11,981 nt of DNA from a virus. Taxonomy: Duplodnaviria; Heunggongvirae; Uroviricota; Caudoviricetes. The notes below the pieces were generated by a model, which worked only from the letters and a program-made list of their open reading frames with translations, did no database searches and was not told the DNA's origin. Location of the stretch: positions 1 to 11,981 of the IMG/VR virus record IMGVR_UViG_2606217102_000003; one strand, given 5' to 3'. Shown here in pieces: positions 10,852 to 11,981 of this stretch (position 1 is the stretch's first letter; the number at the start of each line of letters is the position of its first letter). A program made the translations under genes and the position numbers.

Positions 10852-11277
10852 ATGTTTGGTATTTTCAAAAAGAAAACCCGCAAGGCCATTACCGAAGTGA
10901 AGAAGATGGAGAACCGTGACGCAGTGGAGGCGACCGTCTGGGGCGCGTACTCCATTGCATACGCTGACGGCACCTGTGACGCGAAAGAAATCGCGGTACT
11001 GGAAAAAACCATTGCAGCACTTCCTGTCTTTGCGCCGTTCTCCGGTGAGATTGCACAAATGAGTGCAAATATCCGCGCCCGTTATGAAGCGTCGCCGCGT
11101 TCTGCCAATGCCGAAGCTCTTCGTCAGCTGGCTGATGTTGCCGGTACTGATGATGCAGTTAATGTGCTGTGCCTGTGTCTGGATATCGCTGACCAGGACG
11201 GTATCGGTCAGGAAGAAGAAGCGCAACTGAAGAAAATTGCGCAGGCGCTGCAGTTGCCGCTGGAGCAGTACCTGTGA
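10852..11277 (+). CDS. TerB-like domain protein (141 aa)
   Basis: AAGGA RBS about 9 nt before ATG 10852. Two-part pattern GAYSIAYADGTCDAKEIAVLEKTIAAL and LCLCLDIADQDGIGQEEEAQLKKIAQALQLP fits the TerB fold (paired ADG/DG acidic helices). From memory, not alignment. Confidence 0.55.
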   Translation: MFGIFKKKTRKAITEVKKMENRDAVEATVWGAYSIAYADGTCDAKEIAVLEKTIAALPVFAPFSGEIAQMSANIRARYEASPRSANAEALRQLADVAGTDDAVNVLCLCLDIADQDGIGQEEEAQLKKIAQALQLPLEQYL

Positions 11278-11426
11278 AAAGTGCGCGCCTTGTGCTGGCT
11301 GTCATCCTGTTGTTTCTGGTAGTGGTGGTGGATTTCACCGGACGACTGATGTCGGTGCTGGCAGATGGTGTGCTGGTGGCGATGGCGCTGGTCGTGCTCC
11401 GGCCTTTACTGCGTAAATCTGAATGA
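11274..11426 (+). CDS. Possible 50-aa hydrophobic membrane peptide
   Basis: GTG start overlaps the TerB-like stop (GTGA). Translation VKSARLVLAVILLFLVVVVDFTGRLMSVLADGVLVAMALVVLRPLLRKSE predicts two transmembrane helices. Not in the ORF track; hand-translated. Confidence 0.3.
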   Translation: MKSARLVLAVILLFLVVVVDFTGRLMSVLADGVLVAMALVVLRPLLRKSE

Positions 11427-11435
11427 CATCACACA

Positions 11436-11497
11436 AAAGGCATCTGCGGATGCCTTTGACGGGGTGTTTTTTACGGGGCGCTGGTGGCCCTTTTTTT
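11436..11497 (+). terminator. Two tandem hairpins upstream of the membrane-protein genes
   Basis: Hairpin 1: aaaggcatc-tgcg-gatgccttt (11436-11457), perfect 9-bp stem. Hairpin 2: gggc-gctggtg-gccc (11476-11490) followed by T7 (11491-11497). Confidence 0.5.
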
Positions 11498-11513
11498 ATT
11501 TTCAGGAGGAAGT

Positions 11514-11906
11514 ATGTCTGAACCCTTATCCGGTTCCGGCACGGCTGCGGCGCTGGGTGGCGCGACGGTATTCGGGCTGTTTACCGGGATGGATTTCGGG
11601 ATTGTGTTTGGCGCGTTCGCCGGGGCGTTATTTGTGGCAACAATGCCACAGTCACTTTCAGTCTGGCGCGTGGTGGCACATTTTCTGGTGTCGTTTATTG
11701 TCGGCGTGCTGGGAGCGCGTGTGCTGTCAGCCTGGATTGCATCAAAAACAGGGTATGACGGTACATCAGCAGATGCGCTTTGCGCGGTGCTGGTCTCGGT
11801 GGTGTCGGTGAAGATTCTCTCGTTCATCCACCAGCAGGATATTGCGTCGCTGGTGTCCGGTGTGTTCTCCCGCCTGCGGGGTGGAGGAGGCGGCAATGTT
11901 AAGTAA
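11514..11906 (+). CDS. Multi-pass membrane protein (130 aa), possible holin-like lysis protein
   Basis: AGGAGGA RBS at 11504-11510 before ATG 11514. Three to four hydrophobic helices and a Gly-rich C-terminal tail. Lies where a late-operon lysis cassette would be expected. Holin identity is inferred from position only. Confidence 0.45.
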   Translation: MSEPLSGSGTAAALGGATVFGLFTGMDFGIVFGAFAGALFVATMPQSLSVWRVVAHFLVSFIVGVLGARVLSAWIASKTGYDGTSADALCAVLVSVVSVKILSFIHQQDIASLVSGVFSRLRGGGGGNVK

Positions 11907-11981
11907 CCTTCCCGGATTGCTGAATGTGGCGTTATGCACGGTTATCGTGCTGACGCTCTTTTTTTATCGTCGCCGTGATTC
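11896..11981 (+). CDS. 5' end of a further membrane-protein gene (partial, runs off the window)
   Basis: Strong GGAGGAGG RBS at 11883-11890, 5 nt before ATG 11896. Overlaps the previous gene by 11 nt. N-terminus MLSNLPGLLNVALCTVIVLTLFFYRRRD is a transmembrane or signal-anchor segment. Confidence 0.35.
   Translation, partial: MLSNLPGLLNVALCTVIVLTLFFYRRRD

Follow-up and report, generated by a model that had tools for sequence, protein, structure and literature searches.

What does a lambdoid prophage carry in the exact position from which its relatives express Shiga toxin, and what is that position selected for? The question is raised by a stretch of 11,981 nucleotides from a tailed virus (Caudoviricetes; positions 1 to 11,981 of IMG/VR record IMGVR_UViG_2606217102_000003), here called the window, in which two small genes lie between a tRNA cassette and the lysis genes. 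An earlier note, made from the letters alone, had described them as a TerB-like gene coupled to a gene for a 50-amino-acid membrane peptide, in the slot that holds toxin cargo in other phages. The open reading frames, tRNAs, hairpins and membrane-protein genes of that description are all present where it put them; what it missed, judging from the matches reported below, is that the two genes are the named tciA and tciB genes of phage P1. We conclude that the pair is almost certainly a P1-type tciA-tciB accessory module in the toxin-cargo slot of a phiP27-like E. coli prophage. Both genes are already named, annotated and widespread, which makes the discovery a modest one. Three points are new: (i) a remnant of tciB in phiP27, (ii) the near-obligatory pairing of TciA with TciB, and (iii) a recurrent tRNA neighbourhood.

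TciA belongs to the TerB family by both sequence profile and structure, as the earlier note had proposed. The Pfam TerB profile (PF05099) matches it at E 1.3e-7 with 32.4 bits against a gathering score of 24.4, in two partial stretches, and PHROG 632 ('tellurite resistance') covers its full length at 2.8e-64. A sequence search of the PDB with TciA returned chance-level matches only, so a fold comparison was needed; it assigns this soluble, all-helical protein to the TerB-like helical fold. Anantharaman et al. are said to have defined the TerB domain in 2012 by two repeated acidic D-G...E motifs. Both motifs can be recognized in TciA: across 12 phage homologs that are 28-86% identical, G40, E46, G117 and E122 are invariant and D39 is nearly so. 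The N-terminus, MFGIFKKK, is also conserved and runs from hydrophobic to basic. In a translated search of phage genomes, TciA was 85.8% identical to P1 TciA over the full length.

The key identification with the P1 tci genes came from the second gene, through a family label. TciB matches Pfam DUF3927 at 1.4e-14 and PHROG 1470, which is labelled 'TciB-like', at 3.3e-23. Its core, LLFLVV.VDFTG.LMSVLADGVLV, is almost invariant, and its C-terminal tail is variable. RefSeq labels the identical proteins of an E. coli prophage that is 99.7-99.9% identical to the window as 'tellurite resistance TerB family protein' and 'DUF3927 family protein'; a search of NCBIfam gave no matches. Two hydrophobic stretches in TciB (residues 6-19 and 25-42), together with basic residues at both ends, make an N-in/C-in hairpin topology plausible. 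The 'double-transmembrane' topology of the earlier note is not confirmed, however: in the AlphaFold2 (AF2) monomer, residues 2-48 form a single uninterrupted helix, with a predicted local distance difference test (pLDDT) score of 92.

We surveyed 80 viral contigs that carry close tciA alleles (91-100% identical) and examined distant phages individually. In the window, the GTG start of tciB overlaps the TGA stop of tciA (GTGA), with AAGGA 5' of the tciA start and GGAG about 9 nt 5' of the tciB GTG. An intact tciB directly follows tciA in 79 of the 80 contigs, and the start overlaps as GTGA in 73 of these and as TAATG in the other 6; the sole exception loses homology inside tciB. The translational coupling to a small hydrophobic peptide, first noticed in the window's own letters, therefore holds in nearly all of these close relatives. 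Ratios of nonsynonymous to synonymous substitution (dN/dS) against P1 are ~0.08 for tciA and ~0.2 for tciB, and 0.43 for tciB against JLK-2012; on these values, purifying selection acts on both genes.

The pair is also present in P1 and P7, in the 933W-like phage JLK-2012, in the virulent N4-like Salmonella phage FSL SP-076, in Erwinia jumbo phage Caitlin, in Pantoea phage LIET2 and in Pseudomonas phage ZY21, with a TciB core motif common to P1, P7, JLK-2012 and SP-076. TciA-TciB pairing is near-obligatory across phage families. Given its integrity in the surveyed contigs, the prevalence of the GTGA overlap, its retention in distant phages and the purifying selection on both genes, we regard the pair as one functional unit. 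A near-identical allele occurs in 263 of 5,426 complete E. coli genomes, TciA homologs are found on 800 plasmid records, mostly non-mobilisable phage-plasmids, and several virulent phage families carry the pair. TciB-like peptides form only 90 clusters among 1.84 billion representative proteins in an exhaustive profile search, nearly all of them 45-65 amino acids long.

In phages without TciB, the gene after TerB usually encodes a small membrane protein of another kind, as in Zuri and AF, or TerC is nearby, as in MS02; in PMBT3, TerB is alone. A small membrane partner or TerC thus nearly always accompanies phage TerB. In Zuri (L096 2443-2646) and AF (L093 ~2440-2640, where it is unannotated), the small protein after TerB is conserved between both phages and has one N-terminal membrane helix with the motif YGWQTERETKYA.FVGCMV. 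Vibrio phage vB_VpaP-MS02 (L092 1-2926) has an operon of the order TerD-TerD-hypothetical-TerC-TerB, in which TerB is a TciA homolog and no TciB is present. In ZY21 (L091 ~1000-1174), the annotation gives a 39-amino-acid hypothetical protein; the frame extends upstream to a TciB-like product of ~55-60 amino acids with ..VID..ADG..WPLIK motifs. A record deposited as 'Actinobacillus phage vB_Apl-pPE4' (PP818812; L001 6001-7299), with Actinobacillus pleuropneumoniae as host, is 91% identical to this region of the window in DNA and 97% in TciA; its host label looks doubtful, or the transfer looks very recent. We also considered natural domain fusions of TciB as functional hints and set them aside, the longer matches being frameshift or chimera artefacts. 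A frameshift fusion protein (P0060), considered as a proxy for co-folding TciA and TciB, was set aside too, as MAFFT put the TciB rows onto the TciA N-terminus.

We compared the locus with that of related phages, beginning with phiP27, which carries stx2e. Its genome is colinear with window positions 8845-10725 (90%) and 11332-11981 (86%). The segment that separates the two blocks differs: in phiP27 it is 1,512 bp long and contains stx2eA and stx2eB, and in the window it is 606 bp long and comprises a leader, tciA and 58 nt from the start of tciB. A 3' portion of tciB survives in phiP27 with a one-base deletion, reading LMSVLAEGVLV... / ...AVLAVLWPLLRKTK*. This remnant lies directly downstream of stx2eB (L005 ~4990-5095, corresponding to window 11326-11426). 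Because a frameshifted tciB remnant remains, an ancestor of phiP27 most likely had tciAB and lost tciA and the tciB 5' region to the incoming stx2e. The left junction, at window position 10725, is also where homology with 933W-type Stx2 phages ends, just after the argO terminator hairpin. A second lineage shows the same exchange: JLK-2012 has tciAB where a 933W-type Stx2 phage has stx2AB, and the flanks are common to both phages on both sides. The claim that the pair sits in a toxin slot is therefore well founded.

Further relatives vary at the same place. A prophage of ETEC-2265, 97% identical, has a clean 643-bp deletion of window 10820-11462, which removes tciAB and the first hairpin after it and keeps most of the leader (deletion point at L098 1985-1990). 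UTAK-5 has other genes in place of tciAB, and an Stx2k phage has stx2k plus further genes in the slot. The SerU-LTIIb phage has the same holins, but its enterotoxin genes lie after the endolysin, outside the slot. Homology between the window and its relatives begins at 10681-10711 and has recurrent ends at 11380/81 (the tciB tail), 11408-16, 11444 and 11495. The upstream tRNA sets vary (Met-Arg-Arg, Thr-Gly, Met-Lys-Thr-Gly-Val, or none), and the lysis cassettes downstream are of two types, phiP27 and lambda-S. As the pair is deleted in some relatives and replaced by stx or other genes in others, we consider it accessory cargo and not a core lysis gene, in agreement with the earlier note. In SerU-LTIIb (L006 2032-4395), we also observed that holin 1 is duplicated and that a second pair of tRNA genes precedes the lysis cassette.

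In five unrelated lineages, tRNA genes are found no more than a few hundred bases from tciAB: P1/P7 (L002/L097), JLK-2012 (L003), Caitlin (L090), ZY21 (L091) and the window itself (10427-10676). This tRNA neighbourhood may reflect a recombination hotspot common to these phages, or an accessory region that they all have. The features of the window from the Q-like gene onward are collected in Table 1.

Table 1. Features of the window around tciAB, with positions in the 11,981-nt window
Feature	Position	Strand	Evidence or remark
Q-like late antiterminator gene	8194..8748	+	DUF1133 6.4e-103; Phage_antitermQ 1.9e-6; PHROG 753 'anti-termination protein Q-like' 8.4e-78
Hairpin and T-run, tR' candidate	8833..8856	+	AACCCGC-TTTAT-GCGGGTT, then T7; ~85 nt after Q
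DNA methyltransferase gene	9328..10377	+	N6_N4_Mtase 1.9e-44; DNA ~90% identical to phiP27 L24 region
tRNA(CAU), tRNA-Ile2 (ileZ) in relatives	10427..10502	+	ARAGORN; Rfam tRNA 72.5 bits; PGAP and phiP27 annotations
tRNA-Arg (UCU), argO-like	10600..10676	+	ARAGORN; Rfam tRNA 70.1 bits
Intrinsic terminator of the tRNA cassette, left edge of exchangeable cargo	10690..10714	+	8-bp GC-rich stem, U5
Conserved GC-rich leader, ~135 nt	10716..10851	+	Accompanies tciA in lambdoid phages
tciA	10852..11277	+	141-amino-acid TerB-fold protein, ortholog of phage P1 TciA
tciB	11274..11426	+	50-amino-acid hydrophobic peptide; DUF3927, PHROG 1470
Hairpin 1, after tciB	11436..11457	+	9-bp stem, -13.6 kcal/mol, z -3.4
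Hairpin 2, lysis-cassette leader	11475..11500	+	Stem 11475-11491, then U7; -8.6 kcal/mol, z -1.4
Holin 1, phiP27 type	11514..11906	+	Phage_holin_8 3.3e-23; PHROG 198 'holin'
Holin 2, 5' part	11896..11981	+	11-nt overlap with holin 1; cut by window end

How would such a pair be expressed? A terminator scan and folding place the hairpin of the tRNA cassette at 10690-10709, followed by U5, with -14.6 kcal/mol and z -4.5. Five different hairpin sequences occupy this site in relatives, along with about ten variants without a hairpin. Because all five keep a T-run, there is good evidence that the upstream hairpin is a working terminator. An equivalent terminator site is annotated after argO in an Stx2 phage, where it also precedes stx2A. 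The earlier note had taken this terminator, with two more downstream, to suggest an insulated module. The upstream terminator is real but belongs to the tRNA cassette, and the insulation is borne out only in part.

Both downstream hairpins exist too, in a spacer between tciB and holin 1 (11427-11513) that is conserved in relatives. Hairpin 1 has no direct U-tract on the plus strand; it is conserved in phiP27 and deleted together with tciAB in ETEC-2265. Hairpin 2 is weak and stands directly before the ribosome-binding site of the holin. It is kept in phiP27, SerU-LTIIb, the Stx2k phage and ETEC-2265, all without tciAB, and we therefore assign it to the holin leader. A 2026 preprint reports that the Hfq-binding small RNAs PasA and PasC adjoin the holin operon in related prophages, with TerB a frequent neighbour.

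A promoter of the pair's own, which the earlier note had offered as one option, found no support: a simple promoter scan detected no sigma-70-like site before tciA on the plus strand. The leader is conserved across 43 distinct upstream contexts. In JLK-2012 its identity is still 82%, although TciA identity there drops to 41%. RNA structure in the leader is not supported, with a fold z of -1.2 versus shuffles and an alignment fold in which one pair covaries and the covariation term is positive, and the leader matches no Rfam family. As for the features of a 'moron', we found presence and absence between conserved flanks in related phages, with junctions that recur at about 10690-10711 and at 11381-11495; we found no own promoter, own terminator or atypical composition (no sigma-70 site, a hairpin without a U-tract, and a G+C content of 53-56% versus 50% for the whole window, which is not atypical).

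Further upstream, the Q-like gene is followed by the strong tR'-like terminator, an order that supports expression through Q; the function of tR' is assigned from the layout of lambdoid late operons. In an Rfam search of 8700-11981, only the two tRNAs reached threshold, and STnc100-like and IsrK-like matches fell far below their gathering scores. The IsrK-like alignment, at 8782-8855, scored 21.6 bits versus a gathering score of 50. The region 8782-8856 is probably a short pR'-tR' transcript of the kind of lambda 6S RNA or StxS. Two further neighbours came from annotation of the 99.7%-identical genome. The counterpart of holin 2 is a 'phage holin family protein' followed by an M15 endolysin, so that the overlapping membrane-protein genes of the earlier note are the two holins. 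In the prophage early region, at window ~5801-6426 on the minus strand, lies a pair of a RelE/ParE-family toxin and a ParD antitoxin (L008 9102-9664).

We propose that Q-modified RNA polymerase from pR' would read through the terminator and transcribe tciAB, as it does stx2, so that both proteins would appear in the lytic phase, shortly ahead of the holins. As no promoter was found before tciA and a conserved terminator lies upstream, read-through from pR' would be the main source of tciAB transcript. By analogy with the lambdoid late operon, we think such late, Q-dependent expression rather probable. TciB would bring TciA to the inner membrane, or keep it there, on the cytoplasmic side; a membrane-associated TciA-TciB complex is about as probable. 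The pair may act as a minimal Ter-like module that protects the infected cell's membrane, or excludes competitors such as superinfecting phages and pore-forming colicins, until the cycle is complete. Such a role is suggested by analogy, since the ter operon confers resistance to phages and pore-forming colicins, and we regard it as possible but doubtful. Iyer et al. (2021, PMC7824862) have proposed a role against competitors for Ter genes carried by phages. The pair would be dispensable for laboratory growth, because it is cleanly deleted in ETEC-2265, because tciA, tciB and tciC were scored as non-essential in P1 by CRISPR interference (PMC10695390), and because the tci operon is variable among P1-like phage-plasmids, where its role has been called unclear (PMC9603915). 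Taken whole, function included, this is the best explanation we have, and we hold it tentatively, at somewhat under an even chance.

Several points weigh against that explanation. A simple scan may have missed a weak promoter, or a regulator, within the leader. The hairpin topology of TciB is not confirmed, its modelled monomer being a single helix. A canonical Ter phenotype such as tellurite resistance needs terB together with terC, terD and terE, and none of the last three is in the window. PADLOC-DB 2.0 gave no match at E <= 0.1 for TciA, TciB or holin 1, and hence no link to any catalogued defence system. The layout also differs between phages: the pair is in the C1-controlled ban operon in P1, in the early region in N4-like phages and in a late position here. 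As expression timing differs between phage types, the late timing may be incidental. The literature searched contained no experiment on TciA or TciB and no paper linking TerB or Tci to the stx slot, and the tci name, dating from the P1 annotation of 2004, was given by homology only.

We weighed four other explanations against this background. The first is lysogenic-conversion defence, in which the resting prophage would express the pair for abortive infection or superinfection exclusion. TerB domains do occur in anti-phage systems (the Phi phenotype of the ter operon, and Shango), conversion genes occupy the slot in relatives, and the leader could carry an unrecognised promoter. Set against this are the failure to find a promoter, the conserved terminator just upstream, the lack of a PADLOC match, and the position of the P1 pair behind a C1-repressed promoter. 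Strictly virulent phages, moreover, keep tciAB and have no lysogen to protect. We judge this explanation unlikely.

A slightly smaller chance goes to a lysis-timing accessory, antiholin-like or holin-modulating, by which TciA or TciB would tune the trigger of the two downstream holins. In lambdoid prophages, the holin genes come directly after tciAB and would share its transcript, and TciB is a small membrane peptide, as are many holin partners. A close allele, however, precedes two unrelated cassettes, namely a phiP27-type holin pair with M15 peptidase and a lambda-S-type holin with R. The P1/P7 pair is in the ban operon, the N4-like, jumbo and Pantoea pairs are not beside lysis genes, and phiP27, the Stx2k phage and ETEC-2265 run the same holins without tciAB. 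The abortive-infection or lysis-timing module suggested by the earlier note was a reasonable guess, but it fits poorly with a pair that is kept in strictly virulent phages, lies far from the lysis genes in P1 and has no PADLOC match. As judged from where the genes occur, distribution argues against both a lysogen-only defence and a holin-specific role.

More improbable again is a counter-defence decoy, in which a TciB-tethered copy of TerB would interfere with host TerB systems (Ter or Shango-like) or with TerC-family proteins. Phages do copy parts of host defences, the pair is kept in virulent as well as temperate phages, and a Vibrio phage has a TerB homolog together with TerC and TerD; but E. 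coli K-12, on which P1 and the lambdoid phages grow, lacks a ter operon, and the idea is pure inference. Least probable of the four is a genuine tellurite or colicin resistance determinant for the host, which has in its favour TerB family membership and the annotators' label 'tellurite/colicin resistance protein', and against it a name given by homology, the absence of terC, terD and terE from the window, and the likewise negative view of the PMBT3 authors, who doubt tellurite-resistance activity of a lone phage TerB (PMC8421299).

We return, then, to tciAB as a late-expressed, membrane-associated Ter-like module. In a broader form, which we put forward as improbable in its entirety, TciA-TciB would be a minimal phage-borne Ter-like device common to temperate and virulent phages. 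A TerB-fold sensor or metal-binding protein, docked to the inner membrane by a micro-peptide, would keep the infected cell's membrane energised or would shut out competitors (such as superinfecting phages, pore-forming colicins and abortive-infection effectors that depolarise it) up to the moment when the phage's own holins act, and its tRNA-side position would be a recombination hotspot where toxin genes such as stx2e displaced the pair. Whatever its action, tciAB is the non-toxin alternative at the very place where relatives express Shiga toxin, with the same context for expression. Knowing its function would explain what the slot is selected for and would give a first handle on stand-alone phage TerB proteins.

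The closest known system is tciABC of P1 (AF234172, 2004 annotation), in which tciA is followed by tciB (54 amino acids, same core motif) and tciC. As in P1, the window has a TciA ortholog directly followed by a coupled TciB of the DUF3927 family. The TciB proteins are of similar size, the start of tciB overlaps the tciA stop or directly adjoins it, the pair has tRNA genes on its flanks, and it is accessory and non-essential. There are three differences. The P1 pair is in the C1-controlled ban operon, whereas the window pair is in a late operon upstream of holins. The 135-nt leader is present in the window and absent from P1. No tciC was found in the window, where a tblastn search with P1 TciC gave only an insignificant 8-residue match at E 7, or in the 80 viral loci.

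The stx2e locus of phiP27 and the stx2 locus of 933W-type phages share the layout of the window: a Q-like gene, a TrmB-like open reading frame, a methylase, tRNA-Ile2, tRNA-Arg, a terminator, cargo, two holins and an endolysin. The cargo is an AB5 toxin in those phages and a TerB-fold protein with a membrane peptide here. By analogy, stx2 and tciAB are presumably expressed by the same Q-dependent read-through. TerB of the terZABCDE operon belongs to the same Pfam family (PF05099), with solved relatives 2ou3 and 2h5n, at a sequence similarity to TciA too low for a PDB match. In contrast to terZABCDE, TciA is paired with a 50-amino-acid peptide and has no terC, terD or terE neighbours; TerC, TerD and TerE genes are absent from the window and the surrounding prophage, and only the Vibrio phage MS02 relative keeps a linkage, to TerC and TerD. 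TerB-domain anti-phage systems such as Shango resemble tciAB in combining a TerB domain with a presumed link to the membrane or envelope. They differ in that tciAB has no ATPase or helicase partner genes and no PADLOC match, and in that tciAB is encoded by phages themselves, virulent ones included.

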